A DNA stretch of 64,000 nt, taken from NCBI GenBank assembly GCA_038245905.1, contig JBBRRY010000001.1, positions 96,001-160,000 on the forward strand, in the 5' to 3' direction. The notes beneath the pieces are model-generated. The model was not told the DNA's origin. It worked only from the letters and a program-made list of their open reading frames with translations, and made no database searches. Shown here in pieces: positions 8,965 through 45,382 of the stretch. This DNA comes from Thermoanaerobaculia bacterium. GTDB lineage: Bacteria; Acidobacteriota; Thermoanaerobaculia; UBA5066. The position numbers and the translations under genes are program-made. Position 1 is the first letter of the stretch; each line of letters begins with the position of its first letter.

Positions 8965-9898
8965 CCCACGCGCGGCCATCGGGGTAGCCGGCACGATTCG
9001 CGGCGGCGCGGAACCGCCCCGGCGGTTCGAACGGCGGCTCGTCCGTGAGGACGATCGTCCCCCAGTGCATCGCGACGAGAGTCTTCGCGCGGACGTCGCG
9101 GCCGAGCGAGACAGCCTCCTCCGGGTCGAGGTGCACGGCCCGCATGATCGACGCAGGCTCGTAGGCGCCGATCGGCAGGAGGGCGACGTCGAACGGGCCG
9201 TGCGTGCGTCCAAGGTCGCCGAAAACGGGGCCGTAGCCGGTGTCACCGGCGAAGTAGAGGCGGAGGGAGGGCGAGGCGATCGACCAGGAGCACCAGAGCG
9301 TCGCGTTCCGGTCGAACGGCGTCCGGCCGGAGAAGTGGATGGCAGGAAGACAAGAGAGTGAGACGGAAGAGGAAGACGAAGAGGAAGATTTTCCTAGAAG
9401 GGTGCCCTCGCCCCATCCGAGCTCGCGGACGTCCGAGAAGCGCCGCACCGTGAAGAACGATCCCAGCCCCGAAGGCACGATGGCCGCCGGCGCCCTTCCC
9501 ACTTTCAGAGAAATCTTCCTTACGGAGCTCTCATCGAGATGATCGTAGTGATTGTGAGAGACGACAACCGCATCGAGCTCCGGGAGGTCGTCCACGCCGA
9601 GGCCGGGCGGGACATAGCGCTTCGGGCCGAGACCGGGGAGCGGGCTCGCGTAGTCGGACAGGAACGGGTCGGTGAGAATCGTGAAGCCTGCCGTGCGGAT
9701 GAGGAAGCACGCGTGCCCGAGCCACGTGAGACTCTCGGGACCCGCGGAACGCAGAGCGGCAACGGCCTCCGCCCTCGGAAGGACGTGGCCGCCAGGCACG
9801 GCCGGCGGCCGCTGGGCGATGCGGCGCACGAAGAACGGGAAGAAGTCGGACGGGCCCGCGGTCTGTGCCGGGCTGCCCGGAGGATTGCGAAAGCGCAC
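8930..9898 (-). CDS. MBL-fold metallo-hydrolase (NAPE-PLD-like)
   Basis: TWLGHA, SHNHYDHLD, FAGDTGY, LPIGAYEP and MHWGT motifs. GTG start before RFRNP. Confidence 0.88.
   Translation of the reverse strand: MRFRNPPGSPAQTAGPSDFFPFFVRRIAQRPPAVPGGHVLPRAEAVAALRSAGPESLTWLGHACFLIRTAGFTILTDPFLSDYASPLPGLGPKRYVPPGLGVDDLPELDAVVVSHNHYDHLDESSVRKISLKVGRAPAAIVPSGLGSFFTVRRFSDVRELGWGEGTLLGKSSSSSSSSVSLSCLPAIHFSGRTPFDRNATLWCSWSIASPSLRLYFAGDTGYGPVFGDLGRTHGPFDVALLPIGAYEPASIMRAVHLDPEEAVSLGRDVRAKTLVAMHWGTIVLTDEPPFEPPGRFRAAANRAGYPDGRAWVMRIGETRETR
9378..9520. repeat. Convergent pair of the dispersed GAAGATT motif, inside the MBL hydrolase gene
   Basis: + copy 9378-9402 GAAGAGGAAGATTTTCCTAGAAGGG; - copy 9493-9520 AGGAAGATTTCTCTGAAAGTGGGAAGGG. 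Confidence 0.7.
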
Positions 9899-9939
9899 GC
9901 GGCAGGATACCGGCGGCCCCACGGGTTAGCATCCGTTTC

Positions 9940-11034
9940 GTGCCACGGGTTCTCACGGCCGCGCTCCTCGCGGCGTCGTCCCTTTCCTTGGCGGCGCCGG
10001 AGGCGTTCGACGAGAAGGCGGCCGGCCGCTTCGCGGACCTCGCCCTGGCCTGCGTCGGAAGGGAGTATCCGAACAAGATCGCGCACGCGATGAACGGCGA
10101 CGAGGACGCGCGGCCGCCGCGGGCCCTGACGCCCGTCTTCTTCGGCTGCTACGACTGGCATTCCGCCGTGCACGGCCACTGGCTCCTCGCACGGGTCGCC
10201 CGGACGTTCCCTCGGGCACCGTTCGCGCCGCGGGCGCGGGCGGCGTTGCGCGCGTCGTTCACGCCGGAAAAGGTGGCGGGAGAGGTCGCTTACCTGTCGG
10301 CCCCCGGGCGCGCGACGTTCGAACGGCCCTACGGGCTCGCGTGGCTCCTCCAGCTCTCCGCCGAGCTGCGCGGCTGGGATGATCCCGAGGCGGCGGTCTG
10401 GGCGAAGACGCTCGAGCCCCTCGAGCGCGCCGCGGCGAAGCGTCTCGCGGATTGGCTCCCGAAGCTCGCGTACCCGATCCGCGAGGGCGAGCACGCGCAG
10501 ACGGCCTTCGCGTTCGGGCTCGTCCTCGACTGGGCGCGCGCCTCTGGGGATGCCGCGATGGAGCGTCTCGTGTCGGCGCGGACCCGCGACCTCTATGCGA
10601 AGGACCGCGCCTGCCCGATCGGCTACGAACCGTCCGGGCAGGACTTCCTGTCTCCCTGCCTCGCGGAAGCCGACCTGATGCGCCGTCTCCTCGCCCCGCC
10701 GGCCTTCGCGGGCTGGCTCTTCGGCTTCCTGCCCGGAGTCCCCGGCGACGGCGGGGCGGCGTGGCTGCCGGTTGGCACCGTCACGGATCCCACGGACGGC
10801 AAGCTCGCACACCTCGACGGCCTGAACCTCTCCCGGGCGTGGATGCTCGATGGCATCATCACCGGCCTGCCCGCGAAGGACGGGCGCCTGCCTGCGCTGC
10901 GCGCGGCGCGTGAGGCGCACGCGGCGGCGGGCCTTGCATCCGTGACGGGCGTCCACTACGAGGGCGGGCACTGGCTCGGCACGTTTGCGGCGTACCTCGC
11001 AACCCGTCGCGGCCTGCCGGAGGCCGCTCCGTGA
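9940..11034 (+). CDS. DUF2891 family protein (probably secreted)
   Basis: EYPNK, FFGCYDWHSAVHGHW, FERPYGLAW, HLDGLNLSRAW and YEGGHWLGTFA motifs; signal peptide after GTG 9940. Confidence 0.85.
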   Translation: MPRVLTAALLAASSLSLAAPEAFDEKAAGRFADLALACVGREYPNKIAHAMNGDEDARPPRALTPVFFGCYDWHSAVHGHWLLARVARTFPRAPFAPRARAALRASFTPEKVAGEVAYLSAPGRATFERPYGLAWLLQLSAELRGWDDPEAAVWAKTLEPLERAAAKRLADWLPKLAYPIREGEHAQTAFAFGLVLDWARASGDAAMERLVSARTRDLYAKDRACPIGYEPSGQDFLSPCLAEADLMRRLLAPPAFAGWLFGFLPGVPGDGGAAWLPVGTVTDPTDGKLAHLDGLNLSRAWMLDGIITGLPAKDGRLPALRAAREAHAAAGLASVTGVHYEGGHWLGTFAAYLATRRGLPEAAP

Positions 11035-11786: not shown

Positions 11787-11827
11787 ACACGAGCCGGGCA
11801 GAATGCCGGCCCGAAAGGAGACATCAC

Positions 11828-12253: not shown

Positions 12254-12256
12254 GGG

Positions 12257-12410
12257 GAGAGAAGATTCCTAGAAGGTGAAGAGAGCAGGGGAGGGCGCCG
12301 AAACAATCGGCGCCTTCCGTGCGTACGGGGACCAAACGACTGATCAACAGGAGGCCCGAATGATGAAAGCGCGCCGCAGTATTCTTACCTTCGCAGGAAT
12401 TCTTTCTCTC
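12257..12410. repeat. Convergent pair of the dispersed GAAGATT motif (osmC-DUF1579 junction)
   Basis: + copy 12257-12285 GAGAGAAGATTCCTAGAAGGTGAAGAGAG (intergenic); degenerate - copy 12382-12410 GAGAGAAAGAATTCCTGCGAAGGTAAGAA. Confidence 0.6.
12291..12317 (+). terminator. GC-rich hairpin downstream of osmC (possible terminator; no clear U-tract)
   Basis: GAGGGCGCCG-AAACAAT-CGGCGCCTTC inverted repeat. Confidence 0.4.
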
Positions 12411-12977
12411 CTGCTCTCTTCAGCCGCCTTTTCCGACGACAAGGCGGCAAGCAAGCCCGCCGCGCCGAACCAGGACGAGATGATGAAGGCCTGGATCGCG
12501 TTCGCGACGCCCGGGGCGTCGCACAAGACGCTCGAGGCGATGGCCGGATCGTGGGACGTGAAGACGACGATGTGGATGGCGCCGGGTGCTCCCCCCCAGG
12601 AGACGCGCGGGACGTCGGAGAACAAGATGATCCTGGGCGGCCGCTACCTCGAGCAGCACTACGAGGGCTCGATGATGGGGCAGCCGTTCAGCGGGATCGG
12701 CGTGACGGGCTTCGACAACTACAAGAAGAAGTTCGTCTCCACATGGGTGGATTCGATGTCGACCGCCGTCATGGTCACGGCGGGGACGTCCGACAAGAGC
12801 GGCAAGGTCATCACGTCCTGGGGCACGATGAACGACGTCTCCGAAAAGAGGGCGATGAAGGTCAAAACAGTTGTCACGTTCGTCGACGCCGACCATCACA
12901 CGTACGACTCGTGGCACACGAATGCCGGCGGCAAATTCGTCAAGGACCTCGAGATCCACTACACGCGAAAAAAGTAG
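12360..12977 (+). CDS. Secreted DUF1579 family protein
   Basis: Signal peptide; PGASHKTLEAMAGSW, GGRYL and G.GVTGFDNYKKKFVSTWVDSMST motifs; GGAGG RBS. Confidence 0.8.
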   Translation: MMKARRSILTFAGILSLLLSSAAFSDDKAASKPAAPNQDEMMKAWIAFATPGASHKTLEAMAGSWDVKTTMWMAPGAPPQETRGTSENKMILGGRYLEQHYEGSMMGQPFSGIGVTGFDNYKKKFVSTWVDSMSTAVMVTAGTSDKSGKVITSWGTMNDVSEKRAMKVKTVVTFVDADHHTYDSWHTNAGGKFVKDLEIHYTRKK

Positions 12978-14702
12978 TCAGAGCCTCTTCAGGGCCTCGA
13001 GCGCCGGCTCGAGCGCTTGCCGCCGCCTGAAGAAGTCGGCCCATGGGTCGCTCTTCTGCAGGCGCGCGGCGAAGTTCCCGATCGTGAAGTCCTCGGCCTG
13101 GAGCGACGGCTTCACCTCGCTCCACGCGAGCGGCGTCGAGACGGGCGCGTGGGGGCGGCGCCTCACGGAGTAGGGCGAAACGACGGTCTGCCCGAACGCG
13201 TTCCGGAAGGAGTCGAGGAAGACGCGCCCCTTGCGGGCCGCGACGCGCATCTCCATCGTCAGGTTCTTCGGCCAGGCCGCCGCGAGACGCGTCCCGAGCG
13301 TCTTCGCGAACCACGTGACCTCCTCGGTGCCGGGGCCGCGCACGATCGGGACGAAGACGTGGAGACCCTTGCCTCCGGAGGTCTTCACATACGAGACGAG
13401 CTCGAGGGCGTCGAGCGCCTGCTTGACCTTCAGGGCGGCGGCCACGGCGTCGGCGATCAGGCCCGAGTCCGGGTCGAGGTCGAAGCAGACCCAGTCGGGC
13501 TTGTCGAGCTCGTCGGCGCGGCTGCCCCAGACGTGAACGGCGATGCACCCGAGGTTCGCGAGCGCGAGCTGCGTCTCGAGCGCCCCGCCCACGACCGTGT
13601 TCGTCACCTTCCGGTCCTTGCCGTGCCGCACGACCACCGTCGGAGTGCCGGGAGGCATGCTGGAGGGCTTCTCTTTCTGGTAGAAGCACTCGCCGCCGAG
13701 CCCGTCCGGGCAGCGCTCGAGGGAGAGCGGCCGGTCCTCGACCCACGGCCTCAGTTTGCCGAACACGTCCGCGTAGAACGCGACGAGATCGCCCTTCGTC
13801 CACCCTTCCTCGGGCCAGAAGACCTTGCGGGCGTTGGAGACAGGGACCGGGAAGACGGGGGAAGAAGAGGAAGATTTCTTAGAAGGTGAAGAGGGGAGGG
13901 GAGCCGCGGGTGCGCGCGTCGACTTCGGGCCACGCGCCGCCGCCGCTTTTCTTCCTTTCAAAGAAATCTTCTCTTCGTGCTCTTCGGACCGGGCCCCGCG
14001 GGGCCGCGAGTGCCAGACCGCGGGCTTCGCCCGCTGCGTGCGCTGGAGGAGCTTCGGGTTTGCGAGGAGCTTCTCGACCTCGGCGACGGGATCGCCCGTC
14101 GAGGCCTTCTCGACGTCGCCGCCCTCGTCGATCGCGATCTGGGTCAGGAGCCGATTTGAGACGACGGAGCGCGGGCGCGTCTCGGCCACGTCCTCGTCGG
14201 ACGCGAAGTCGTCGCGGTGCTTGATGAGGAGCCACGAGGGCTTCGACGAGCCGCCCCAGCCCTTCGTACGGACGAGGACCCAGGACCCCTTCAGCTTCTC
14301 GCCGTGGAGCGTGAACTTGAGATCTCCCTTCTTTAGCGCGGCGTCGACGTCAGGTGACTCCGGTGTCCAGGTGCCGCGATCCCAGACCATGACCGTCCCG
14401 CCGCCGTATTCGGCGACGGGGATGATCCCCTCGAAGGCGGCGTACTCCTGGGGGTGGTCCTCGACGTGGGAGGCCATGCGCTTGACGGCGGGATCGAGCG
14501 ACGGTCCCTTCGGTATGGCCCACGAGAGGAGCACTCCGTTCCACTCGAGTCGGAAGTCGTAGTGGAGGGCCGTCGCCCGGTGCTTCTGGACGACGTAGGC
14601 GAGAACCCGGCGCGCCGCGCGGCGCTTCGCGGGTGTCTTCGCGCCCGCGGGCTCCTTCGTCACGCCAAAGCGGCGTTTCCGGCGATATTCCTCGAGGGCC
14701 AT
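12978..14702 (-). CDS. ligD: LigD-family NHEJ protein with 3'-phosphoesterase and primase-polymerase domains only (no ligase domain)
   Basis: PE domain (LEEYRRKR, VVQKHRATALHYDFRLE, SWAIPKGPS, EDHP); POL domain (RCPDG, FYQK, FDLDP, KTSGGKGLHV). No KxDG ligase motif seen. Confidence 0.85.
   Translation of the reverse strand: MALEEYRRKRRFGVTKEPAGAKTPAKRRAARRVLAYVVQKHRATALHYDFRLEWNGVLLSWAIPKGPSLDPAVKRMASHVEDHPQEYAAFEGIIPVAEYGGGTVMVWDRGTWTPESPDVDAALKKGDLKFTLHGEKLKGSWVLVRTKGWGGSSKPSWLLIKHRDDFASDEDVAETRPRSVVSNRLLTQIAIDEGGDVEKASTGDPVAEVEKLLANPKLLQRTQRAKPAVWHSRPRGARSEEHEEKISLKGRKAAAARGPKSTRAPAAPLPSSPSKKSSSSSPVFPVPVSNARKVFWPEEGWTKGDLVAFYADVFGKLRPWVEDRPLSLERCPDGLGGECFYQKEKPSSMPPGTPTVVVRHGKDRKVTNTVVGGALETQLALANLGCIAVHVWGSRADELDKPDWVCFDLDPDSGLIADAVAAALKVKQALDALELVSYVKTSGGKGLHVFVPIVRGPGTEEVTWFAKTLGTRLAAAWPKNLTMEMRVAARKGRVFLDSFRNAFGQTVVSPYSVRRRPHAPVSTPLAWSEVKPSLQAEDFTIGNFAARLQKSDPWADFFRRRQALEPALEALKRL
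13857..13976. repeat. Convergent pair of the dispersed GAAGATT motif, in the ligD linker
   Basis: + copy GAAGAAGAGGAAGATTTCTTAGAAGGTGAAGAGGGG (13861-13896); - copy GAAGAGAAGATTTCTTTGAAAGGAAGAAAAG (13946-13976). Confidence 0.8.
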
Positions 14703-14752
14703 CGCCGCGACGATACGGGGCGGAGCGTCCGGATTCCAGCGTTGGCCGCGCG

Positions 14753-15706
14753 TCAGACCGCCGGGGTGGTCTGCCAGCGCGTGCTGCGATCCCAGAGATC
14801 CGACTCGAGGTCCTCCGCCTCCGAGTGAAACTCCTGCCCTGTCCCCTCGGTCAGGAAGCGGCCGAGGCTCTTGATGACGCTGGGCTCGCGCAGGATGCGG
14901 CGGTGCCCGAGCCCCGACGTGGCGTGGAGGCGCGAGCCGGGCCACGAGCGCAGGATCTCCTCCGCATCGGCAAACGGGACTTCGGCGTCGTCGCGATCGT
15001 GCACGACGAGGGCGGGGATGTGCCCGAGCGAGGAGACCGCCCTCCCGATATTCGCCTCGGCCCAGCGGAATGCGAACTTGCGCTCGATCCGGGCCATCGT
15101 CGCGGCGCGTCTGACGTCGTCGAATCCCACGATGTCAAGGAACCAGCGGAAGAAGTCGGTCGGGTCCGCTGCCGCCCCGATGAGGACGACGCGCTCGGCC
15201 GGCGCGCCTCCGGTGCACGCGATCACCGTTGCGGCGCCGCCGAGGGAGTGTCCGACGATCGCCCGAACCCGGCCCTCACGGCGGGCCAGCACGTCGATCA
15301 GTGCCGCGAATTCGAGCAGATCCGATCGTTTGCCCTGACTGCGACCGTGGCCGGGAGCGTCCCAGGTCAGGACCGAGAACCCCGCGGAGACGAAGGGCTC
15401 AACGAAGGCCGTAAGCTGCCCGCCTCGGCCCGACCAGCCATGGGCGAGGAGGATCGTCGGGCCATGGCCCCAGCGCCAGATTGCGATGCGCTTGCTACGG
15501 AACTCGATCCACTCGCGGGCCCCGGTCCTCAGGACCGCACGCTCCCGGGCAGGTGGGCGGCGCCGTGCGGGCGTGAAGAAAAGACGCTCTGCGGCCCGGG
15601 AAGCCAGCGCAGGGCTGACCGCCCCGAGGAGGCGAACCGACGGGATCAGGAGCCGTCGGGAAAGGGGAGCGGGTCGTCGCGATGGGGGGGCGATGGTGTG
15701 CGACAA
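14753..15706 (-). CDS. Alpha/beta-fold hydrolase co-transcribed with TetR
   Basis: LAHGWSGRG, DAPGHG, GHSLGG, HDRDDAEVP and GLGHRRIL motifs. Confidence 0.88.
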   Translation of the reverse strand: MSHTIAPPSRRPAPLSRRLLIPSVRLLGAVSPALASRAAERLFFTPARRRPPARERAVLRTGAREWIEFRSKRIAIWRWGHGPTILLAHGWSGRGGQLTAFVEPFVSAGFSVLTWDAPGHGRSQGKRSDLLEFAALIDVLARREGRVRAIVGHSLGGAATVIACTGGAPAERVVLIGAAADPTDFFRWFLDIVGFDDVRRAATMARIERKFAFRWAEANIGRAVSSLGHIPALVVHDRDDAEVPFADAEEILRSWPGSRLHATSGLGHRRILREPSVIKSLGRFLTEGTGQEFHSEAEDLESDLWDRSTRWQTTPAV

Positions 15707-15721
15707 ATTGCCCTCCGGGCG

Positions 15722-16321
15722 TCAGGCCTGTGGAACCCTCGCGGCCATTACGAGATTCTCGAAAGCGGCTCGGGCGCGGTGGCCCGCGTCCGGGTCTCCG
15801 AGGAGACGATGGGAGAAAAAACACGAAAGCATGACGCCGTAGAGGTCCTGTGCGAACTGTTCAGGCTCGACCTCCGCGCGGAAGTGCCCCTCAGCGACAG
15901 CGGCTCGAACCACGTTGGCAAGCAGCGCGAGCCACTGCCGCTGTTGCGCGACGAGATGCTCGCGGGCGGCTCCGGGTTGATCGTCGAGCTCCGCGGCCGC
16001 CGCCACGAAGAGACAGCCCCCGGGCATGCCGCTCTTCTTCGGCCAGTCCATCCAGAGCCGGAAAGCGGCGCGGATACGTGGCTCTCCGCGGGGAGCTGCG
16101 AGCGCCGGCCGGATCACAAGGTCCGCAAAGCGGACAGCGGCGTGCTCCAGCGTCTGGATCTGGAGCGACTCCTTGGACCGGAAATGGGCAAAGACGCCGC
16201 TCTTCGAGAGAGCCGTCTCCTCGGCGAGACGTCCGATCGTGAGCCCGTCCAGGCCCACTGTGCTCGCGAGCGAAACGGAGTGGTCCAGGATCGCCTGCCG
16301 CGTGACGTCTCCCTTACTCAT
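15722..16321 (-). CDS. TetR/AcrR family transcriptional regulator
   Basis: N-terminal HTH (GLDGLTIGRLAEETALSKSGVFAHFRSKE); GGCLF motif. Confidence 0.92.
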   Translation of the reverse strand: MSKGDVTRQAILDHSVSLASTVGLDGLTIGRLAEETALSKSGVFAHFRSKESLQIQTLEHAAVRFADLVIRPALAAPRGEPRIRAAFRLWMDWPKKSGMPGGCLFVAAAAELDDQPGAAREHLVAQQRQWLALLANVVRAAVAEGHFRAEVEPEQFAQDLYGVMLSCFFSHRLLGDPDAGHRARAAFENLVMAARVPQA

Positions 16322-16356
16322 TGCAGAATAATAGTACGATCGTTCGTCTCTGTCAA
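16322..16356 (-). promoter_or_regulatory. Sigma70-type leaderless promoter of the tetR gene with a probable operator in the spacer
   Basis: Minus strand reads TTGACA (16356-16351), 17 nt, TATTAT (16333-16328), 6 nt, ATG. The spacer contains the palindrome ACGATCGT. Confidence 0.75.
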
Positions 16357-16430
16357 GGCGGCGCGGACACGCCCGAGAGAACGTCGGGAAGAGGACCCGA
16401 TCCGCTTAAACTTCGGTACTTTCCCCTGAG

Positions 16431-19064
16431 ATGAGGAGCGCCATGAATCTCGCCACTCGTGTCCTCGCGACCCTCCTGTCTATCGCGCCCGCTCTCGCGC
16501 ACTCAGCCTCGCCGCCCACTCCCTCGGAGTTTCTCGGGATCAAGGTAGGCGCTGATCGGACGCTCGCGGACTACCGGCAGATCTCGTCTTACTTTCGCGA
16601 GCTCGAGAAGGCCTCGCCGCGCGTGAAGATCCAGAACCTCGGAAAGACGACGCTCGGGGAGGACATGCTTCTCGCCGTCATCACCAGCGAGGAGAACCAG
16701 CGAAACCTCCCGCGGCTTCAGGAGATCTCGCGCAAGCTTTCCGATCCGCGCGGGCTCTCGGATTCCGATGTCGCCGCCCTCACGAATGAGGGCAAGGTCG
16801 TCCTCCTCGTGACGTGCAACATCCACGCGAGCGAGATCGGCTCAACGCAGATGGCGATGGAGTGGGCGCACGCGCTGGCGACGTCGGACGACCAGGAGAC
16901 GAAGCGTCGCCTCGCGAACGTGGTGGTCCTCCTCCTGCCGTCCCTGAATCCCGACGGCCAGATCATGGAGACCGACTGGTATCGCAAGAACCTCGGAACG
17001 AAATACGAAGGGGGCCGGCTTCCCTGGCTGTACCACCACTACGTCGGGCACGACAACAACCGCGACTGGTACATGCTGACGCAGAAAGAGACGAAGGCCC
17101 TCAACCGGGCCGTGTACAAGGAGTGGCTCCCCCAGGTGTGGCTCGACGAGCACCAGATGGGAATCAACGGGCCGCGCATCTTCATGCCGCCCTATGCCGA
17201 ACCGGTCTCGTCCGACGTGCACCCCCTCGTTTGGCGCGACGTCAACCTGATCGGCGCGGCGATGGCTCTCCGGCTCGAACAGAGGGAGAAGTCGGGAGTC
17301 ATCTACGGCTATTCCTTCGACGCCTACTGGCCCGGCGGCACGAAGAACACGGGCTGGTGGAAAAACATCGCGGGACTTCTCACCGAAGTCGCGTCCGTGC
17401 GGCTGGCGTCCCCGGTTTACCTTCCGCTTGGCGAGCTCGCGGGGGGTCGGAAGGGCCTCATCGACTACCGCGCGCAGACGAATTTCCCGAACCCCTGGCC
17501 GGGCGGCTGGTGGCGGCTTCGCGACATCATGGATTACGAACGAATCGCCTCGGACGCGATCCTCGAGACCTGTGCAGACCGCCGCGAAGACTTCCTGAAG
17601 GACATGGCGACGCGGGCCCGCGCGAGCATCGCGGCCTTCCGTCCGGACGACGCCTACCGCATCCCGATGGGGCAAGGTCAGCGGGATCCGGCGACCGCCC
17701 TGGTTCTCGCCCGGATCATGGGCGAGCACGGAGTCGACGTGAGGTCCGGCCCGAACGGGGACGCGTTCATTCCCCTCGCACAGCCCTACGGAAAATTCGT
17801 ACGGGAGATGATGGAACCGCAGCGGTATCCCGAAGTGAAGCTGGTAGCCGGGAAGGACATTGTTCGTCCCTATGACGTCGCCACGTGGACGCTGCCCGCG
17901 ATGATGGGCGTGAGGGTCGAGCGCGCGACGCTGCCGGCCGGACTGACCGAATTCGATCCAGCAGGCGGAGGAGGAAGAGGAAAAGAGGGAGAGATTCTGA
18001 GAAGGGGGGCGCCGGCCGCCGCACTTCTCCCGGGAAGTCCCGAGAACGCAAAGGTCGTGAACGCAGCGTTGAAAGCGGGCGCCGTGGTCTCGATTCTGCG
18101 AGCGCCCGCGCCCTTCGAGGGCAGGGACTGGCCCGCGGGAACGATCATTCTCGGAAAATCCGCGCTCGATTCCGCGGAGGCGTCCCTCGTCGCGACGCGC
18201 GTCCCCCTCTTTCCTTTCAAAGAAATCCCCTCTTCTCCCTCTCTCTCTCGCCTGCGCGCCCCGCGCGTCGGCCTCTACAAGTCGTTTACGTCTTCCATGG
18301 ACGAGGGGTGGACGCGCTGGCTCCTCGAGCAATACGGCTTCGCGCCGGTTTCGCTCGAGAACAAGGCCGTTCGTGCGGGTTCCCTGGCTGAGAGGTTCGA
18401 CGTCATCGTCCTTCCGGACATGGAGGCCGAGGTCATCGCGACCGGCCGCCCGCGTCGCGAGGAAGGGGAGTCCCGCTACATCCCGGAGCTTCCGCCGGGA
18501 TACCAGGGAGGCCTCGAGAAGGAGGGCGCGAAGGCCCTGCGGGACTTCGTCGAGGCAGGGGGGACGCTCGTCGCGTTCGACTCCGCGACGGACTACGTCG
18601 CGAGCGAATTCTCGATTCCCGTCCGAAACACGCTCGCGCGCGCCAAGCGCGAGGAGTTTTTCTGCCCGGGTTCTCTCCTGCGCGTCCACGTGGACGCGTT
18701 GCACCCCGTGACATGGGGTCTGCCTTCCGAGGTGGCTGTGTTCCTGGACGACGCGACCGCCTTGCAAACGTCGCTTCCGGGAGCCGAGCTCGAGAGGTGG
18801 GTTCTCGCGTCTTACCCGGACGACGAGCGCGACGTACTCGTCTCCGGCTGGATTCATGGCGGAGACCGCCTCACGCGGCGCGCGGCGGCGGTCGCGACGA
18901 CGTTCGGCAAGGGGAAGCTCGTGCTCCTCGGCTTCCGGCCGCAGCACCGTGCCCAGACACACGCGACGTTCCCGTTTCTCTTCAATGCACTCTACTGGTC
19001 GGTCGAGGGACCGCCTCCCGGCGCGAAAAAAGACGGCGTGAAAGCTTCACCCGGAAGGGGGTGA
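16431..19064 (+). CDS. Secreted M14 family zinc carboxypeptidase with a C-terminal GATase1-like domain
   Basis: NIHASE (HxxE), NPDG, HDNNRD and DEHQMG motifs; C-terminal MDEGWTRW..FDVIVLP; signal peptide. Start may be 16443. Confidence 0.87.
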   Translation: MRSAMNLATRVLATLLSIAPALAHSASPPTPSEFLGIKVGADRTLADYRQISSYFRELEKASPRVKIQNLGKTTLGEDMLLAVITSEENQRNLPRLQEISRKLSDPRGLSDSDVAALTNEGKVVLLVTCNIHASEIGSTQMAMEWAHALATSDDQETKRRLANVVVLLLPSLNPDGQIMETDWYRKNLGTKYEGGRLPWLYHHYVGHDNNRDWYMLTQKETKALNRAVYKEWLPQVWLDEHQMGINGPRIFMPPYAEPVSSDVHPLVWRDVNLIGAAMALRLEQREKSGVIYGYSFDAYWPGGTKNTGWWKNIAGLLTEVASVRLASPVYLPLGELAGGRKGLIDYRAQTNFPNPWPGGWWRLRDIMDYERIASDAILETCADRREDFLKDMATRARASIAAFRPDDAYRIPMGQGQRDPATALVLARIMGEHGVDVRSGPNGDAFIPLAQPYGKFVREMMEPQRYPEVKLVAGKDIVRPYDVATWTLPAMMGVRVERATLPAGLTEFDPAGGGGRGKEGEILRRGAPAAALLPGSPENAKVVNAALKAGAVVSILRAPAPFEGRDWPAGTIILGKSALDSAEASLVATRVPLFPFKEIPSSPSLSRLRAPRVGLYKSFTSSMDEGWTRWLLEQYGFAPVSLENKAVRAGSLAERFDVIVLPDMEAEVIATGRPRREEGESRYIPELPPGYQGGLEKEGAKALRDFVEAGGTLVAFDSATDYVASEFSIPVRNTLARAKREEFFCPGSLLRVHVDALHPVTWGLPSEVAVFLDDATALQTSLPGAELERWVLASYPDDERDVLVSGWIHGGDRLTRRAAAVATTFGKGKLVLLGFRPQHRAQTHATFPFLFNALYWSVEGPPPGAKKDGVKASPGRG
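17967..18249. repeat. Convergent cluster of the dispersed GAAGATT motif, in the M14 peptidase gene
   Basis: + copy GAGGGAGAGATTCTGAGAAGGGGGG (about 17985-18009); - copies GGATTTTCCGAGAATG (about 18146-18161) and GAGAAGAGGGGATTTCTTTGAAAGGAAAGAGG (about 18206-18237). Confidence 0.7.
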
Positions 19065-19095
19065 GCCGCCGGAGATCCAGGGATCGCGTGCTAGC

Positions 19096-23877: not shown

Positions 23878-25020
23878 TCAGTAGTAGAAGACCTGGACCT
23901 GAACGGTGTACTGGTTCGTGGTTGCGACGAGAGGGTCGTTCGGGAATTCCTTCCGCGTGAAGCCGGCCTTGATGTTGAAGTTCGAGCCGTACGGGTACCA
24001 GCCGAATCCGACCTGGTAGAAGTTCTTGTTGAGCTTCTGGTTCACGTCGTCCTGGTACTTCTGGAGCTCGTAGCGGAGGAACGGCATGACCTTCAGGCCG
24101 CCGACGAAGACGCCGGCCTCGAGGAAGAGGTCGTCCTGCTTGAAGAGCGCGGCCGTGGGGAAGGTGGCGCCGCCGTCGTAGCGGATGTAGTCGGCCTGCG
24201 CCGTGAGACCGTTCCCCTTGCCGATCGGGTAGTCGAAGAACACGTCCGCGGCATAGGCGGTGTAGTCACCCTGGTTGTCGACGCTCGCGCCGAGGGCGAG
24301 GATCTTCTTCTTGCCGAAATACGTGCCGGGGTAGAACTGGACCTTTTCCACGTCGAAGACGTTGTACTGGGCCCGGGCTGTGAAGCGGAAAGAGTTCTTG
24401 ACGCCGGGGGCGCGGAAGCCCGAATAGACGCCCGCGCGGTATTCGAGGTGGTCGCCCGCGAGATAGCCCTTGGCCTGGAACCCCGTATCGCGCCCGACGG
24501 AGGACTGCGTGGAGGCGCTTTCCTGGAACGACCACGTCCCGTAGTCCATCGAAACCAGGTTCACCGCGCTCGAGTTGCAGTTGCGGCAGAGGGGAATGAG
24601 GATGAGGCCGCCCTGGATCCGGAACTCGTTTGCGACCGCCCATTCCATATAGGCATCCTGAACGATGAAGCCGGTCGCAGGCGCCTTGATGCCTGTCGTC
24701 CCGCTCGTGGCTGTCTGGGTCGACTTCCCGAGATTCGGGTTGTCGGTCATGAAGAAAAACGTGACGTCTTTCGCGACTTGTCCCCCGAGGAAGAACCTGG
24801 CCCGGCGCAGGAACAGGTTCTCCTGGAACCCGGCCGTGCTCCCCGCGGCGTCCGACTGGCCGTTCCAGTCCGCCCAGCCCTGCAGCAGGATGCCGAGCCG
24901 GAAGTTGACGGTGTCGTTCACCTTGATGATGGCCTGGGCATTCGCGATTCCCGGCAGGAGCGCGATGAGCAGGGCAAGGGAAACGAGAACGAAGCGATTC
25001 ACACTGATCCTTGAACGCAC
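23878..25020 (-). CDS. Outer-membrane porin (OprO/OprP-like beta-barrel)
   Basis: Signal peptide, FLRRARF motif, GRDTG, alternating beta-strands, aromatic C-terminus (QVFYY). GGAGG RBS before GTG 25020. Confidence 0.75.
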
Positions 25021-35027: not shown

Positions 35028-37985
35028 CTACTCCCCGACGACGCGCCGGCAGCGCGCGCAGATTCCGTCGTCTCCGGGCTCGACGTCCTTCCGGACCTGC
35101 CAGCAGCGCGGGCACTTCAGGCCATCGGCGGGGCGGACCGCGAAGATCTCCGTCCCGCCCTCCCGCACGACCGATGGCGTTCCGAAGAGGTCCGCGAGTT
35201 TTTCTTCTGAAAGGGAAAGAATGGCGAGCGCCTCGTCGACCTCGCCGCCCCGGCCCACGACGGGCGTCGCCTGAGAGGCGGAGCCGACCTTTCCTTCCCG
35301 GCGAAGGGGTTCGAGCTGCGCGAGGAAGTTCGCTCGGAGCGCGAGCATCGTCCCCCAGGCCTTCCTCTCATTCACAGAAATCTCCGGTAGCCGGAGGTCG
35401 CTCCAGCTCTTCAGGAAGAGCGCGGACGAATCCCCCGCGTACCCTGGGACGGCCTCCCAGATCTCCTCGGCCGTGAACGGGCAGATCGGCGAGAGCGCAA
35501 GTGCGATCGTCTCGACGAGTTTCCAGGCGGCCGTCTGGGCGGAGCGCCGGACGGAATCGTTCGCCGCGAGGACGTAGAAGGCGTCCTTGCGGACGTCGCA
35601 CCAGAAGGCCGAGAGGTCGATCGTGACGAGGTCCAGGAGCCGGCGCGCGACCGCATGGAACTCGTAGCGCGCGTACGCGTCGCGCGCCTCGGCCGCGAAC
35701 CGGGCCGCGGCGTCGAGCACCCAGCGGTCGAGCGGCTCCATGCTCGCGGCCGGCACCGCATCCGTCGCCGGATCAAAATCGAAGAGGTTCGAGAGGAGGA
35801 AGCGCGCCGTGTTCCGGATCTTCCGGTAGGCCTCGGCGGTGCGCAGCAGGATCTCCTTCGAGAGCGGGTCGTCGCTCGTGTAGTCGAGCGAGGCGACCCA
35901 GAGGCGGATCACGTCCGCGCCGTCCGTCTTGAGGAGCTCCTGCGGCTCGATCGTATTGCCGAGAGACTTCGACATTTTTCGGCCGTCGCCCGCGACGACG
36001 AATCCATGGGTAAGAACGACGTCGTACGGCGCGCGGCCGGTCAGCGCGACGGACGTGAGGAGCGACGACTGGAACCACCCGCGGTGCTGGTCGTGCCCTT
36101 CGAGGTACATGACCGGCACCGGCGGCTGAGAAAGGTACGGATCGGCGAGGCCGTAGTCGCCCGAACGCAACACCGCGGCGTGCGAAACGCCGGAGTCGAA
36201 CCATACGTCGAGGATATCCTTGAGCTTCTCGAACGACGTTCCGCCGCAGCGCGAGCACGCTGGAGAAACAGAAGAGGAAGATTTGCTTAGGAAGTAAGAG
36301 GGAGGGAACGCATCGTCATACCAGGCATTCGCACCGTGCTCTCGGAAAGTACCTCTTACACCTTCAAAGAAATCTTCTCTTTCTTTCTTGTCTTTGTCGG
36401 GTATGTCGCCTACGACCCGCGGGAAGTGGCTGACGACGCCCTTCTCCTTGCAGTCGACGCACCGGAGAAACGTGATCGGCGACCCCCAGCGGCGCTGGCG
36501 GGAGATCGTCCACTCCAGACGGTTGTCCACCATGGCACCGATGCGGTTCTCGCTGTACGACGGGATCCACTCAACATGGCCGCGGATCTCCGACATCGCC
36601 GTCTCGCGGAGCGCCCCGAGGTCGATGAACCATTGATGCGTCGCCCGGAAGATGACCGGGTTCTTGCAGCGCCAGCAATGGGGATAGGAGTGAGGGGATT
36701 TCTTCGAGCTGAGAAGAAGAGCGCCAGACGCTTCTCCCTTCGTCAACTCTTCGAGAACTGCCGCATTCGCGTCGTCGGCAGGCGTCTTCGGTGTGACGAC
36801 GCGCTTTCCCCGAAACTGCTCGGGGGCGTTCGCGTCGAAGTACCCGCCCTCGTCGACCGGGCAGAGCGCCGGGTCGTCTACCTTCTTACCGGCCCGTTTG
36901 ACGACCTCGTAGTCGTCGCGGCCGTGGCCGGGCGCCGTGTGGACGAGGCCCGTGCCGTCCGACGTCGAGACGTGCTCGCCGAGGAGGAACCCGAAATTGT
37001 CGAATGGATCGGACGCGAACGGGCGGGCGTATCGCAATGCGGGCGTTGCCGCGGCAATCGATTCGCCGCTCTTTTTCGAAAGGGGAAGAGGGGTGGCGTC
37101 GCGCCATCCCAGCGCGGCCGTCACTTGCGGCACGAGCGCGTGGGCGACGAGGTAGGCGGCGCCCGGCTCGGATTCCCTTCTCAGAAGAACATATTCGATC
37201 TTCGGACCCAGCGCGATGGCCCTGTTGGCGGGCAACGTCCACGGCGTCGTCGTCCAGACGAGGGCGTAGACGCGCGGCGATCCGACGGCCTCCAGCGCGT
37301 CGCCCCACGTACCCCTCGAAGAAATCTCTTCCACAGGCATTCCGACGTAGATCGACCAGTCCGTCTTGTCTTCGTACTCGATCTCCGCCTCGGCGAGCGC
37401 CGTGCGGTCGTGGACGCACCAGAGGACGGCCTTGAAGCCGAACGAGACGAGGCCCTTCTCGACGAACCGGCCGAACGCCCGCGCGATCTCGGACTGGTAC
37501 GAGAAGTCCATCGTCTTGTACGGTGACTGCCAGGCCCCGAGGACGCCGAGGCGCATGAAGTCGGTCCGCTGGACGTCGATCCACTTCTCCGCGTACGCCC
37601 GGCAGGCGTCGCGGACCGCGACGTCGGTCATCGCGCGCTTCTTCGGGCCCAGCTCCTTGTCGACCTTGATCTCGATCGGCAGGCCGTGGCAGTCCCAGCC
37701 CGGCACATAGGGCGCGTCGAAGCCGGCGAGCGTTTTCGAGCGGACGACGAGATCCTTGAGGATTTTGTTCATCGCCGTCCCCATGTGAATCCGGCCGTTC
37801 GCGTAGGGCGGTCCGTCGTGCAGGAGAAACTGCGGGGCGCCCTTGCGGGCGGCGCGGATGCGGCCGTAGAGGTCCCCGTCCACCCAGCGCGCGAGTCGCG
37901 CGGGCTCCCGCTTCGGGAGGTCCGCTCTCATGGGGAACTCCGTCTGCGGGAGCAGGAGGGTGGATTTCCAGTCGCGTCCGCTCAT
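35028..37985 (-). CDS. ileS: Isoleucine--tRNA ligase (type 1)
   Basis: [47 protein letters not shown], and a C-terminal CPRC..CARC Zn finger. ATG at 37985. Confidence 0.96.
35196..35385. repeat. Degenerate convergent pair of the GAAGATT motif (ileS 3' part)
   Basis: + GAGTTTTTCTTCTGAAAGGGAAAGA (about 35196-35220); - GGAGATTTCTGTGAATGAGAGGAAG (about 35361-35385). Confidence 0.45.
36271..36395. repeat. Convergent pair of the dispersed GAAGATT motif, in ileS
   Basis: + GAAGAGGAAGATTTGCTTAGGAAGTAAGAGGGAGGG (36271-36306); - AAGAAAGAAAGAGAAGATTTCTTTGAAGGTGTAAGAGG (36352-36389). Confidence 0.8.
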
Positions 37986-38081
37986 GTGAGCCGCGGAGGT
38001 TACGCGGTCGCCCCGCGCGCGGCAACCCGGCGAGGCACGCGCGGGTTGCTTCCGCGTGGCTTCCTTTACACTCCGGCCCGC

Positions 38082-39026
38082 ATGGTGAAGATCCGCACAG
38101 GCATCGTCGGCTGCGGCTATCTCGGCCGGCACCACGCGCGGATCCTGACCGAGCTCGAAGGTTCGGAGCCCGTCGGCTTCGTCGACGGAGACGACGCCAC
38201 GGCCCGGGCAATCGAAGCCGCGCACGGAGCAAAGGGTCTCGTGAGGAGAAGCTCCGTGAAGGAGCTTCTCGACGCGGGCGCTCGCGCGGTCGTCGTCGCG
38301 TCGCCGACCTCCACGCACGCGGAGGTGGCGGAGGAGCTTCTCGAAGGAGGCGCCGACGTGATGGTCGAAAAGCCCATCACCGTGACGCTCGCGGACGCCG
38401 ACCGGCTCGTCGCCCTCGCACGGGCCAAGGGGCGCGTCCTGCAAGTGGGCCACATCGAGCGTTTCAACCCCGCCGTCGTCGCCGTTCGCCCGCTCGTGAC
38501 CAACGTGAAGTTCATCGAGGCGCACCGGCTCGGGGTGTTCGTGCCGCGCGCTCTCGACGTGGACGTGGTCCTCGACCTCCTCGTGCACGACCTCGACATC
38601 GCGCTCGACCTCGTGGGCCGGCCCGTCACCGAAATTCGGGCAGTCGGCGTTCCGATCCTGAGCGAGAAGATCGACATTGCCTCCGTGCGTCTGTCGTTCG
38701 AAGGCGGCTGCGTCGCGAACCTGACGGCCTCGCGCGTCTCGCAGGAGAAGACCCGAAAGTTCCGGTTCTTCCAGCCCGACTGGTATTTCTCGATCGACAC
38801 GCAGAATCGCGACGTGACGGCCTTCCGTCTCGATCGGCTGAGCGGCCCGCCGCGCATCGTGCCGTGGCCCGTGGCGGTCGAGCCCGCGGACGCGCTCACC
38901 GCCGAGGATGCCGCGTTCCTGAAGGCCTGCGCCGAACGCAGCGAGCCCGAAGTCACGGGAGAAGCCGGCCGCGCGGCGCTGAAGCTCGCTCTCGACATCC
39001 TCGAGGAGATGGGGCGGGGGAGATGA
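38082..39026 (+). CDS. Gfo/Idh/MocA family oxidoreductase
   Basis: [34 protein letters not shown] and ANLTASRVS motifs. Confidence 0.88.
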
Positions 39027-39883
39027 CGAAAGAGATTCACCGCATCGGCCTCATCGGAGGATCGGGCCTGTATTCGCTGCCCGGTCTCGAGGTCACCCGC
39101 GAGATCAGGCTTCGGACTCCCTTCGGCTCCCCGTCCGACTCTTTCATTCTAGGAAATCTCTCTTCGGTCCCCGTGGCGTTCCTCGCCCGCCACGGCCGCC
39201 ATCACTTGCTCCTGCCGGGTGAGGTCAACTACCGCGCGAACATCTGGGGCTTCCGGAAGCTTGGCTGCTCGTGGCTGATCTCGGCTTCCGCCTGCGGCTC
39301 GATGAAGGAGGCGTACAAGCCGGCCGACATCGTCCTTCCGGACCAGTTCATCGACCTGACGAAGCACCGGGTCTCGACGTTTTTCGGCGGCGGCTGCGTG
39401 GGTCACGTCTCGTTCGCATACCCGGTCTCGACCGTCCTGCTCGATGCCCTCGCAGCGGCCGCAAAAGTTGAGGGCGCGGTATGTCACGGCGGCGGGACGT
39501 ACCTTTGCATCGAAGGACCCCAGTTTTCCACGAAGGCCGAGTCGTCGCTCTACCGCTCGTGGGGTGTCGACGTGATCGGCATGACGAACGCCACCGAAGC
39601 AAAGCTCTGCCGGGAGGCCGGAATCGGCTACGCCTCCATGGCCCTCGTCACCGACTATGACTGCTGGCACGAGGAGGAGGCCGCCGTCTCGGTGGAGGCC
39701 GTCCTCGCCGTCCTCAAGCAGAACGCGGGCACCGCGAACCGCGTCCTCGCGAACGCCGTGCGGCACCTCGATCCCGATCGGCCGAGCGACTGTGCGGATG
39801 CTCTCGCGTGGGCCGTCCTCACGGCGGAAGAACGCATTTTACCCGCCGCCGCGAGGCGCCTCGCGCTGTTCCTGAAGAAATGA
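39023..39883 (+). CDS. mtnP: S-methyl-5'-thioadenosine phosphorylase
   Basis: [38 protein letters not shown] and TDYDCW motifs. Confidence 0.92.
39138..39165 (-). repeat. Single copy of the GAAGATT motif, in mtnP
   Basis: Minus strand reads GAAGAGAGATTTCCTAGAATGAAAGAG. Confidence 0.65.
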
Positions 39884-41430: not shown

Positions 41431-41452
41431 CGGCCGGGCGAAAGGGACGCGT

Positions 41453-42792: not shown

Positions 42793-42829
42793 CGCGAGGC
42801 CGTCCTTGTCGTTTACACTCGCCGGCTCG

Positions 42830-45382
42830 ATGAGCAGCACGACGACGAAGAGCGACGAAATCCACCGGATCGAAGCCAAGTGGCGCGAGCGCTGGGAAGC
42901 GGATCGCGCCGCCTTCGTGGACACGGGAAAGCCCGCGGGCGAAGGAACGTACCTCCTCGTCATGCTCCCTTACCCGTCGGGCGACCGCCTGCACGTCGGG
43001 CACGCCCGGACGTACTTTCTGACCGACGCTCTCCACCGCTTTCTCAGGCAGACCGGCGTGACCGTGTTCTGTCCCATGGGCTGGGACGCCTTTGGCCTTC
43101 CCGCGGAGAACTACGCGATCCAGAAGGGGATTCATCCCCGCATCTCCACGCTTGCGAACATCGCGGCGATGAAGGAACAGTTCCGGGCGTGGGGAGTTCT
43201 CTACGACTGGACGAAGGAAGTCACGACCTGCGAGCCCGAGTACTACCGCTGGAACCAGTGGTTCTTCCTCAGGCTCCTCGAGAAGGGTCTCGCGGTCCGG
43301 AAGAAATCGGCGGTCAACTGGTGCCCCTCGTGCCTCACGGTTCTCGCGAACGAGCAGGCCGAGGGGGGCGTCTGCGAACGCTGCAAGACGCCGGTCGTCC
43401 AGCGCGAGCTGGAGCAGTGGTTCCTGAAGATCACCGACTACGCCGAGCGGCTCCTGGAAGGCCTCGACACGCTCGGCGCATGGCCCGAGAAAGTCGTCAC
43501 GATGCAGCGCAACTGGATCGGCAAGTCCACGGGCGCCGATCTCGACTTCGCGATTCCGTCGCTCGGGGAGACGGTGCGCGTCTTCACGACGCGTCCGGAC
43601 ACCGTGTTCGGCGCGACGGCGCTCATCCTTGCCCCCGAGCACGCGCTCGTGCCGCGCCTGCTCGACAAGCACCCGAAGCGCGCCGAGCTCCAGGCGTGGG
43701 TCAAGTCCGTACGCGACCAGGAGCGCATCGCTCGCGAGGCTGAGGGCGCCGAGAAGGACGGCCGGGACACGGGCGTCAAGGCGGTCAACCCGTTCACCGG
43801 GCAGGAGATTCCTGTATGGATCGCGAACTTCGTGATCGCGAGCTACGGCACAGGCGCCCTCATGGCTGTCCCGGCGCACGACACGCGCGACTTCGAGTTC
43901 GCGAAGAAGTACGACATTCCGATCGTGAAGGTCATCGAGGAGGAGAGGAAAGAAGAAGAGGAAGAAGATTTGCTTAGAAGGGAGGAGGGGGAGGGGCGCG
44001 CGCCGGGAGCGGAAAGCCTCGGCGGGTCGACTGCCTCCGCTTATACGGGCGAAGGCCGCCTCATCGCCTCCGGACCATTCTCAGCAAAATCTTCCTCTTC
44101 CGCTCGCGAGCTGATTGCGGCGGAAGCGGCTCGCCGAGGGATCGGCGGGCCGCGCGTGCGCTACCGGTTGCGCGACTGGCTCATTTCCCGCCAGCGCTAC
44201 TGGGGCACCCCGATCCCCATGATCCACTGCGAGAAGGACGGCTGGCTCCCCGTCCCCGAGAAGGACCTGCCCGTGGTCCTGCCCGCCGACGCGCCGTTCA
44301 CGGGCACGGGAGGCAACCCGCTGGAGAAAGTCGCCTCGTTCGTGAACACGACGTGCCCCCGATGCTCCGGCCCCGCGCGCCGCGAGACGGACACGATGGA
44401 CACCTTCGTGGACTCGTCCTGGTACTACCTGAGGTACCTCGACCCGAAAAACGCCCGGGCGCCGTTCGACCCCGCCATCGCGAAGGAGTGGGCGCCCGTC
44501 GACCAGTACATCGGCGGGATCGAGCACGCGATCCTGCATCTCCTGTACGCGCGCTTTTTCGCGCGCATCCTGAAGGACCTTGGCCTCGTGACGTTCGAGG
44601 AGCCGTTTTCCGCGCTCTTCAACCAGGGCATGATCACGCGCCAGTCCCCGACCGGGCGCGTCGAGAAGATGTCCAAGTCGCGCGGCAATGCGGTGTCGCT
44701 CGACCCGCTCATCGCCGAGAAGGGTGCCGACGCCGTCCGCGCGTTCATCCTCTTCCTCGGACCGCCGGAGAAGGACTCCGAGTGGAGCGACGAGGGGATC
44801 AGCGGCCCCGAGCGTTTCCTCTGGCGGGTGCGGGCCACAGTCGACCGGTTCCTTCAGGCAGGCTCCGATCCGAAGGGCCAGCCTGCGAAGGTCGACACGC
44901 CCGCGGCGCGCGCGCGCCATATGGCTGTGAAGAGGGTCACGGAGGACTTCCGGGCGTTTTCTTTCCACACGGCCGTGGCGCATCTCATGGAATTCCACAA
45001 CCATGCGACGAGTCTCGCCGGCGACGCCGACGCGGACGTGGGGGAGACCGCGACGACCCTCCGGACGCTCGTCACCCTGCTCCATCCCATTGCGCCTCAT
45101 CTGTCCGAGGAGCTTCACGAGCGGATGGGCGGCGCGAAGAGCCTCCTCTTGTCGGGCTGGCCGGCCTTCGATGCGGCGCTCGCGGTGGAGGAATTCGCGT
45201 CGATCGCCGTGCAGATTTCCGGGAAGGTCCGGGCGGAGATCAGGCTCCGACGAGGATCTTCTGAGAAGGAAGCCGTGACCGAGGCGGAATCGAACGGGAT
45301 CATCGTGAAGTGGCTCGACGGCAAGCAACGTGTGAAGACCATCTGGGTGCAGGACCGCCTGCTGAACATCGTGGTGAAGTGA
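42830..45382 (+). CDS. leuS: Leucine--tRNA ligase
   Basis: [47 protein letters not shown] and KMSKS motifs. Confidence 0.97.
43937..44101. repeat. Convergent pair of the dispersed GAAGATT motif, in leuS
   Basis: + GAGGAGGAGAGGAAAGAAGAAGAGGAAGAAGATTTGCTTAGAAGGGAGGAGGGGGAGGGG (43937-43996); - GGAAGAGGAAGATTTTGCTGAGAATGG (44075-44101). Confidence 0.8.

Follow-up and report, generated by a model that had tools for sequence, protein, structure and literature searches.

Convergent pairs of purine-rich arms form a dispersed repeat family in Thermoanaerobaculia and bracket host coding sequence in conserved genes

The window analyzed here is a 64,000-nt stretch of a Thermoanaerobaculia bacterium (UBA5066), spanning positions 96,001 to 160,000 of the forward strand of contig JBBRRY010000001.1 (assembly GCA_038245905.1). 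It has a GC content of 63–72%, carries ordinary housekeeping genes, and is syntenic with a locus of a relative (L008) at about 78% nucleotide identity. Scattered through it, at a density of roughly one per 4–5 kb, are short purine-rich repeat arms that can be followed by an inverted, pyrimidine-rich copy. The inventory comprises five strong and two weak convergent pairs plus three solo arms (Table 1). All five strong pairs are intragenic, lying in genes for a metallo-beta-lactamase (MBL)-fold, NAPE-PLD-like hydrolase, the inter-domain linker of LigD, an M14-peptidase-like protein, and the isoleucyl- and leucyl-tRNA synthetases (IleRS, LeuRS; genes ileS, leuS). Reading frames are open through all five. 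A first-pass annotation of the window had placed the strong pairs at the positions given in Table 1; all five stand, and nhmmer anchors agree (9387+, 13873+, 36280+/36374−, 43967+/44091−). The weaker pairs it listed are real but degenerate (12254–12415 and 35184–35387). With up to 3 mismatches allowed, a 17-mer core occurs 5 times in the window against 0.04 expected, and none of 100 shuffles reached 5. A hidden Markov model (HMM) built from ten arms recovered those ten among its twelve best window matches (E 2.5e-5 to 1.4), a result that is circular for the ten themselves; two sites outside the training set, 8817–8833 and 39147–39160 (E 0.42 and 1.4), outrank the weakest arm.

The family extends well beyond this window. 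An exact one-arm pattern scanned against species-representative genomes hit at least 117 stretches. Of the matches listed, 114 come from metagenome-assembled genomes labelled Thermoanaerobaculia, Acidobacteriota or Acidobacteria. Three matches outside Acidobacteriota (L014, L067, L116) were taken as chance, as the arm model detects no partner for any of them. The arms are a lineage-specific dispersed repeat family of Thermoanaerobaculia (Acidobacteriota), a group of uncultured soil and sediment bacteria. Each arm is 40–60 nt long. A (GAR)n tail of variable length leads into the core (G)ATTT(N)CTTAGAAGG, beyond which lies an inner TGAAGAGGGG, fading past about 15 nt. The unbroken purine run before the core measures 6 to 48 nt, 6 of these bases being set by the search pattern, and some copies carry an outer terminus TCCGAAGAG. 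Within the core lies a 9-bp dyad, TTCTnAGAA; a single arm is purine-rich and cannot self-fold. Translated, the purine arm yields peptides rich in E, K, R and G (e.g. EDFLRREEG, KISLK), and the pyrimidine arm yields (P)SKKSSS followed by poly-Ser. Where a long open reading frame (ORF) is present, the second arm is read K-S-S-S in 16 of 17 cases, orthologues included.

Pairing is a property of the family at large. At least 121 unique one-arm seeds were found, and the 75 with 400-nt flanks free of N entered a partner test in which a partner was a downstream inverted arm with an alignment score of 22 or more. Such a partner was present for 48 of 75 seeds, compared with 8 of 225 controls (upstream inverted, and direct on either side); 27 of 75, roughly a third, fell below the threshold. 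Analysis outside the window covers 1.43 Mb of sequence around seeds. Orientation of neighboring hits, named by the first-pass annotation as a property to check, showed a convergent excess in these fetched loci. Arms lying farther than 700 nt from every seed had not been picked by the pattern; their neighbors no more than 400 nt away at E≤1 were 21 times convergent, 3 times tandem and twice divergent, and at E≤0.1 the figures are 9, 2 and 2. Each pair is an imperfect long-range inverted repeat, as had been described, and the example pair quoted at the time is exact (13864–13886 on the plus strand, 13954–13976 on the minus strand). The purine copy does come first, as had also been noted, but the constancy of this order on either gene strand is trivial and uninformative because a purine-rich left arm makes any inverted repeat begin with purines on whichever strand it is read.

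Outer core-to-core spacing has a mode at 84–114 bp (26 of 49 pairs) and a tail to 311 bp. This distribution bears on the idea, raised in the first-pass annotation, that about 100–130 bp between two sites is bridged or wrapped by a protein that dimerizes or loops. Such a DNA-binding protein would serve chromosome organization or regulation. The narrow mode, the head-to-head sites with one conserved sequence, the dyad in the core, and several intergenic copies just upstream of, or around, start codons are all consistent with such a protein. Helical phasing, by contrast, did not emerge: a 10–11 bp periodicity is absent from the 49 spacings (Rayleigh R 0.06–0.10, p 0.6–0.85), which range from 84 to 311 bp. 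The third of seeds lacking a detectable partner and the lack of a candidate protein also count against it, and looping would leave variable tails and unit indels unexplained. We regard a bridging or wrapping protein as distinctly improbable, although a putative sequence-specific factor binding head-to-head sites is part of the best reading given below. What periodicity there is follows codons. About half of the pairs (26 of 49) are spanned by a long coding-like ORF, and the spacing of genic pairs has a period of 3, with 19 of 26 in one class (orthologues included), because of reading-frame limits.

The other proposal of the first-pass annotation was that each pair forms an mRNA or single-stranded DNA stem enclosing a coding loop. 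A structure of this kind might impede ribosomes or be a target for RNase. Arms do pair in five of five minimum-energy folds (z −3.3, −1.4, −5.5, −0.7 and −3.3, thus below −3 in three), and the loop of one pair contains a ribosome-binding site and start codon. Any inverted repeat must pair in this way. Inner arms of true pairs scored 10.5 against each other and 10.5 when permuted (p 0.35), and whole arms of 21 non-seed pairs scored 6.8 as opposed to 8.4 on permutation. Arms of the same pair are therefore no more alike than arms of different loci, with no covariation and no trace of local copying. One sequence is conserved rather than mere complementarity, which argues that the stem is not the selected entity. 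Copies are also independent of the direction of transcription, some are intergenic, and Rfam returned no match at gathering score across the whole window. A functional stem is very unlikely.

The same comparison disposes of pair-specific copying, whether by template switching or by homogenization, which was rejected for want of any excess in within-pair similarity. Template-switch (quasipalindrome) mutation is a replication error in which a stretch is exchanged for the reverse complement of another one close by (PMC8794818). It resembles the present case in yielding inverted repeats around unchanged sequence without length change. It differs in predicting arms that are mutual copies, and local copying alone leaves unexplained a single consensus over all loci. 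Genome-wide homogenization was likewise rejected: core-spacer variants are locus-specific and common to orthologues, a pattern that indicates vertical inheritance.

What lies between the arms is most telling in the conserved genes of the window. In LeuRS, IleRS and the MBL-fold protein, alignments identify the interior as ancestral host coding sequence. In each pair, one of the two arms lies over ancestral codons and alters the length slightly or not at all. Net gains over homologues amount to 5 residues in the MBL-fold protein, about 14 in IleRS and about 34 in LeuRS. The first-pass annotation had surmised that DNA between the ileS arms still encodes normal IleRS and that the pair is not a miniature inverted-repeat transposable element (MITE) with internal cargo. 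Alignment to solved IleRS structures and over 100 relatives bears out both points for ileS, and the same holds for the LeuRS and MBL-fold genes.

The IleRS interior corresponds to FREHG(S/A)(N/D)xW(F/Y) of the solved enzymes and relatives, so that canonical spacing and a host interior occur together in this pair. The arm that is first in the mRNA overlies RxxFF(E/D)xV, a motif of all relatives including arm-free ones, with a net gain of 6 residues; the other arm contributes about 8. Of the 17 codons of the first arm, 13 end in A or T in an ORF whose GC content at third codon positions is 0.82, and this arm departs from the arm consensus exactly where the enzyme requires F and V. The second arm is composed of host YFL and a poly-Ser stretch, the latter ranging from 0 to about 25 residues among relatives. 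In the MBL-fold gene, the first arm in the mRNA aligns to human NAPE-PLD without an indel (host SVIALNERFGNEL of 4qn9), and the second, conserved at the syntenic L008 locus, adds about 5 residues. Across 120 relatives the first arm forms a graded series (LPGKER, FSSKER, ISSKVR, ISLKVR) and the second runs from WWEETRV-GDD through GEGTLLRES to GEGTLLRKSSSSSS. Relatives with either arm alone also occur.

LeuRS displays the largest range of states. Its interior aligns to AYEEPGIMVNSGPF of the Thermus enzyme, its left arm is an insertion of about 19–21 residues, and its right arm involves no indel. Among 84 distinct relatives the left site may be empty or hold remnants of a tail, a single arm, two arms in tandem, or the full block; the right-arm peptide is present even without the left arm (P0059, P0062, P0065, P0068). 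In two deeper relatives (P0066, P0067) the left arm accompanies a right site of host type. Eight relatives, and none of the others, carry a block of about 50 residues made up of left arm, interior and right arm. Leaf order in quick trees of LeuRS and of the MBL-fold protein was too noisy to order these gains and losses and served solely to show that every arm combination occurs. Beyond the window, a single FG-GAP repeat is exactly bracketed by arms in a protein built of such repeats (L059, L063, L065), the first arm falling on the G-D-F motif of the host; in alanyl-tRNA synthetase (AlaRS; L047, L053) the arms bracket part of the C-terminal coiled coil. With ileS and leuS, the AlaRS pairs bring to at least three the aminoacyl-tRNA synthetases of this lineage that carry arm pairs. 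AlaRS of L053 was dropped as a fourth test of a host interior, as solved structures span the N-terminal part only.

Interiors differ from locus to locus. At their centers, 29 canonical copies are GC-rich and bear no relation to one another, non-orthologous interiors having a mean score of 8.8 compared with 8.2 for shuffled sequence. Shared repeats around unrelated interiors, near starts or inside genes, recall families of invertons built on one motif, in which a site-specific recombinase would flip whatever the arms enclose. Invertons within genes are on record (PMC10028968). None of 58 orthologue comparisons revealed an inverted interior, which is weak evidence since consensus assemblies hide minority orientations. 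No recombinase was seen in the window, and inversion of conserved segments of IleRS or LeuRS would destroy the function of essential enzymes. We consider inversion extremely unlikely.

Comparison of orthologous loci reveals gain and loss of both whole units and single arms. At one intergenic site, L057 has a left arm, 66 nt and a right arm, L034 has the two arms abutting as a minimal hairpin, and L006 is empty; a unit can collapse to its tails (L034 versus L006). Single-arm differences include 30 nt between L084 and L018 and 81 nt in L039, with further cases in L050 and in L072 versus L023. A donor for the extra 81-nt segment of L039 was rejected, as elsewhere only its 20-nt core recurs. The arm was kept in 162 of 223 arm-orthologue comparisons and gained by indel in 28 of 223. 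An automated count of same-length arm losses (15 rows) was discarded for several anchor-offset artifacts. L055/L016 turned out on alignment to carry both arms, and the L059/L065 alignment was uninformative. For right-arm cores, which were not selected by the pattern, identity over 39 orthologue pairs, not phylogenetically independent of one another, was 0.83–0.86, as opposed to 0.73 for interiors and 0.77–0.80 for flanks. The excess over interiors has a Wilcoxon p of about 0.001–0.002; that over flanks has p 0.002 for genic pairs and 0.08 for the rest. Persistence of an AT-rich core in a 67% GC genome would likewise argue for constraint.

These observations may be set against a classical non-autonomous transposon of the MITE or Rickettsia palindromic element (RPE) kind. 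Here a unit of about 140 bp would be pasted by a transposase acting in trans, with the arms as terminal inverted repeats, followed by neutral decay and selection against disruptive copies. Presence and absence of a whole unit at the L057/L034/L006 site, the minimal hairpin of L034, the LeuRS block found in eight relatives and none of the others, and the canonical size peak all fit such an element, and in-frame palindromic elements are known in Rickettsia (PMC10969869). On the other side, the interior is host sequence in three of three well-aligned window genes, where the gains of 5, about 14 and about 34 residues fall short of the roughly 47 that a pasted unit would bring. The ileS pair is canonically spaced and nevertheless has a host interior, and interiors of canonical copies are unrelated. 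No clean target-site duplication was found at the one unit site, no transposase was seen in the window, and no repeated gene was detected in 1.37 Mb of loci. Retention in a 67% GC genome of an AT-rich core that is more conserved than its flanks also counts against it. Insertion of intact units is, on balance, an unlikely explanation for the family.

An opposite possibility is a signal that accumulates in place through drive or selection, as DNA uptake sequences (DUS) or the highly iterated palindrome HIP1 do, and that is recognized as head-to-head pairs. In its favor are same-length codon overlays, seen at the protein level in three genes, at core-like sites with intermediates present, departures from consensus where the protein needs a particular residue, and conservation at orthologous sites. 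Uptake sequences, too, sit in coding regions with preferred frames and at poorly conserved residues, as described in PMC2817400. Unlike known uptake signals, the arms are long (40–60 nt), have variable tails and frequent indels of 30–150 nt, and are sparser, at about one per 4–5 kb; pairing over about 100 bp is equally foreign to such signals. A conventional uptake-like signal strikes us as quite unlikely, although less so than a looping protein.

The reading we favor, while holding it tentatively and at somewhat less than an even chance, is a paired-arm element akin to RPEs and to the paired palindromic elements of other bacteria discussed below, whose arms were acquired singly, partly in place, and kept as sites for a putative factor. 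Each convergent pair would represent one copy of a dispersed inverted-repeat element. Arms would be acquired one at a time, some as insertions of 30–150 nt and others as short same-length replacements where the sequence already resembled the core, as with host FFE in IleRS and host FSSKE in the MBL-fold gene. Tails would then lengthen by slippage while the core is retained. Since all arms converge on one sequence with no pair-specific covariation, what is kept would be sites for a trans-acting factor and not a base-paired RNA. The kept object would be a head-to-head pair of sequence-specific sites, and the putative factor would act on DNA, either as duplex or as folded single strand; most economically, it would be an enzyme that spreads the arms. 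Within genes, the surviving copies would be those whose translation the host protein tolerates.

Several points weigh against this favored account. All four arm combinations at the leuS sites are found among relatives, so the leuS pair is not an obligatory unit. No clean target-site duplication accompanies the unit insertion that separates L057 and L034 from L006, a possible TTCGG being unconvincing. Neither transposase, RAYT (the transposase associated with repetitive extragenic palindromic, or REP, sequences) nor recombinase was seen in the window, and within the 1.37 Mb of loci no genome showed a multi-copy gene close to its arms. Interiors are never shared between non-orthologous copies, and hence there is no sign of recent copying. 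The overlaid codons are deduced from protein alignments, the nucleotide sequence of relatives being that of L008 and the fetched loci, and for these gene-level overlays a relative's DNA was seen for L008. Finally, the conservation excess of the core is modest and comes from orthologue pairs that share ancestry, and conservation of left arms is biased by the way loci were found.

A bolder version of the same facts is that the arms are a genomic signal written into existing DNA as head-to-head pairs about 100 bp apart, including into codons of ileS, leuS and alaS, by a directed or driven process and then selected. We rate this as doubtful, though deserving of more weight than insertion of an intact transposon. 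Candidate writers would be an enzyme peculiar to the lineage with affinity for DNA or single-stranded hairpins, or else a drive resembling that of uptake signals. If arms are indeed written in place, they would offer a tractable case in which a nucleotide signal and a protein sequence share the same bases, and would point to a new enzyme or drive in a poorly known uncultured lineage. They would then constitute not a transposon but a novel class of signal that comes in pairs and is superimposed on coding sequence.

Known systems share individual traits with the arms. Bacterial interspersed mosaic elements (BIMEs) consist of paired REP sequences. REP doublets forming hairpins (REPINs) occur in hundreds of copies and persist vertically, as outlined in PMC3337134 and PMC3116915. 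Like REPINs and BIMEs, the present pairs combine two inverted short repeats with a spacer over about 100 bp. Unlike them, about half are intragenic whereas REPs are extragenic, the single arm cannot self-fold whereas each REP is itself palindromic, and the RAYT transposase that REPs accompany was not seen within the window. Rickettsia palindromic elements are in-frame repeats in many unrelated genes, located in tolerant parts of proteins and also found outside genes, as summarized in PMC10969869. Palindromic repeats here are also translated in frame in unrelated genes and found outside genes. An RPE is a whole-element insertion with a conserved peptide in another taxon; here interiors are unrelated, host sequence is retained and codons are overlaid, a distinction drawn from descriptions and not from sequence comparison.

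Correia elements are an example of the classical bacterial MITE. The present elements resemble MITEs in general (PMC10969869) in that they have terminal inverted repeats, are small, encode nothing themselves and are polymorphic for presence or absence. The differences are that no clean target-site duplication, conserved interior or partner transposon was found in the window or loci, that single arms are gained and lost, and that arms overlie host codons. Uptake signal sequences (USS) and DUS are motifs within coding sequence that favor certain frames and tolerant positions (PMC2817400), and HIP1 serves as a cyanobacterial comparison motif (PMC5861425). These share with the arms their location in coding sequence, conservation across relatives and a presumed build-up in place, but are 8–12 nt long, or up to about 29 nt if flanks are counted, occur singly or closely paired, and have neither tails nor large indels.

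No work on inverted repeats of Thermoanaerobaculia was found in the literature, the repeat-related matches listed being ecological or unrelated. The family is previously undescribed, and none of the systems compared here unites paired arms with host interiors and overlaid codons. As a rule, dispersed palindromic repeats lie outside genes or are inserted as whole units; here, arms flank working conserved segments of essential enzymes, partly reuse host codons and are kept across a whole bacterial class. They also account for odd Glu/Lys-rich and poly-Ser inserts in these proteins.

Table 1. Arms of the repeat family in the window. Positions are window coordinates; anchors are the GATT start of the left arm and the AATC end of the right arm of strong pairs.
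Feature	Position	Anchor	Host or location	Remarks
Weak solo arm	8814..8851		alpha/beta-hydrolase gene 8329-8964, plus	E 0.42
Pair 1, left (purine) arm	9361..9404	9387	MBL-fold/NAPE-PLD-like gene 8930-9922, minus	Second arm in mRNA, read LLGKSSSSSSSS
Pair 1, right (pyrimidine) arm	9494..9527	9515	Same gene	First arm in mRNA, read SVRKISLKVGRAP
Weak pair, left arm	12254..12293		5′ leader of DUF1579 gene (12276-12977, plus)	Directly past upstream stop codon
Weak pair, right arm	12385..12415		DUF1579 gene	Overlies signal-peptide codons SILTFAGILSLLLSS
Pair 2, left arm	13848..13903	13873	LigD (12978-14945, minus), linker between phosphoesterase and primase-polymerase domains	Best consensus copy
Pair 2, right arm	13946..13993	13968	LigD	Ends in outer terminus CTCTTCGGACC
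Pair 5, left arm	17968..18008	17993	M14-peptidase-like gene 16431-19064, plus	Weak, E 1.4
Pair 5, first right arm	18143..18163	18160	Same gene	Degenerate, read ILGKS; E 57, doubtful alone
Pair 5, second right arm	18205..18249	18227	Same gene	Long pyrimidine tail; different frame, FPFKEIPSS; E 0.009
Weak ileS 3′ pair, left arm	35184..35222		ileS 3′ part	Outer terminus TCCGAAGAG
Weak ileS 3′ pair, right arm	35358..35387		ileS 3′ part	E 21
Pair 3, left arm	36262..36304	36280	ileS, minus (annotated protein 985 aa)	Second arm in mRNA
Pair 3, right arm	36352..36396	36374	ileS	First arm in mRNA
Solo arm	39138..39171		Purine/MTA-phosphorylase-family gene 38864-39883, plus	
Pair 4, left arm	43937..43993	43967	leuS 42806-45382, plus	True insertion
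Pair 4, right arm	44074..44105	44091	leuS	No length change vs other LeuRS
Two tandem arm-like copies	49128..49200		5′ end of TolB-like gene 47738-49216, minus	Long tail; no clear partner

In L008, the left arm of the LigD pair is conserved and the right arm is degenerate; the L008 orthologue of the arm in the DUF1579 leader matches the exact seed pattern. The DUF1579-gene pair, whose arms pair in the predicted fold (z −3.3), has between its arms a terminator-like GC hairpin together with the start codon and ribosome-binding site, and the signal peptide owes its hydrophobic core to the pyrimidine arm. This arrangement is common to the window and L008 (about 10000–10160). The ileS open frame (35028–38588, minus) would encode 1186 residues compared with 985 in the protein collection; IleRS homology begins near residue 206, so the longer ORF overshoots the true start.

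Some features of the arms themselves deserve mention. Each arm is nearly a mirror repeat of purines about TTTCTT. The left-arm core (e.g. 13873–13895) holds AGAAGGTGA, which is Shine-Dalgarno-like, and the complement of AGAAGGTGA in the right arm resembles the usual 3′ end of 16S rRNA. In six of six window pairs the left arm has YTAGAAGG and the right arm CTTTGAAAGG. A link of these types to chromosome strand was rejected because, where an arm is translated within a gene, the variants remove stop codons (TAG and TGA in different frames), and partners elsewhere carry every variant. Tail lengths shift by triplet or hexamer steps. In L013 (about 10100–10150) the tail beside the right arm is replaced by about seven copies of the hexamer CCGAAT, a run partly replaced by CCTCAT units in its orthologue L073, suggesting that the outer ends of arms are prone to slippage. 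In L021 (about 9150–9250) a run of N lies within an element, with identical sequence flanking the gap, which suggests that assemblers stumble on inverted repeats; at least one scaffold gap, that in L021, adjoins an arm pair.

Elsewhere in the window, a segment of about 4.4 kb (14720–19176) is absent from the otherwise syntenic L008 (12370–12493) and carries an alpha/beta-hydrolase gene along with the M14-peptidase-like gene that hosts pair 5. Two large genes, at 19096–21747 and 23878–25071, have little or no family assignment: the 883-residue protein matches DUF4388 at its C terminus only, and the 397-residue protein has no Pfam match.

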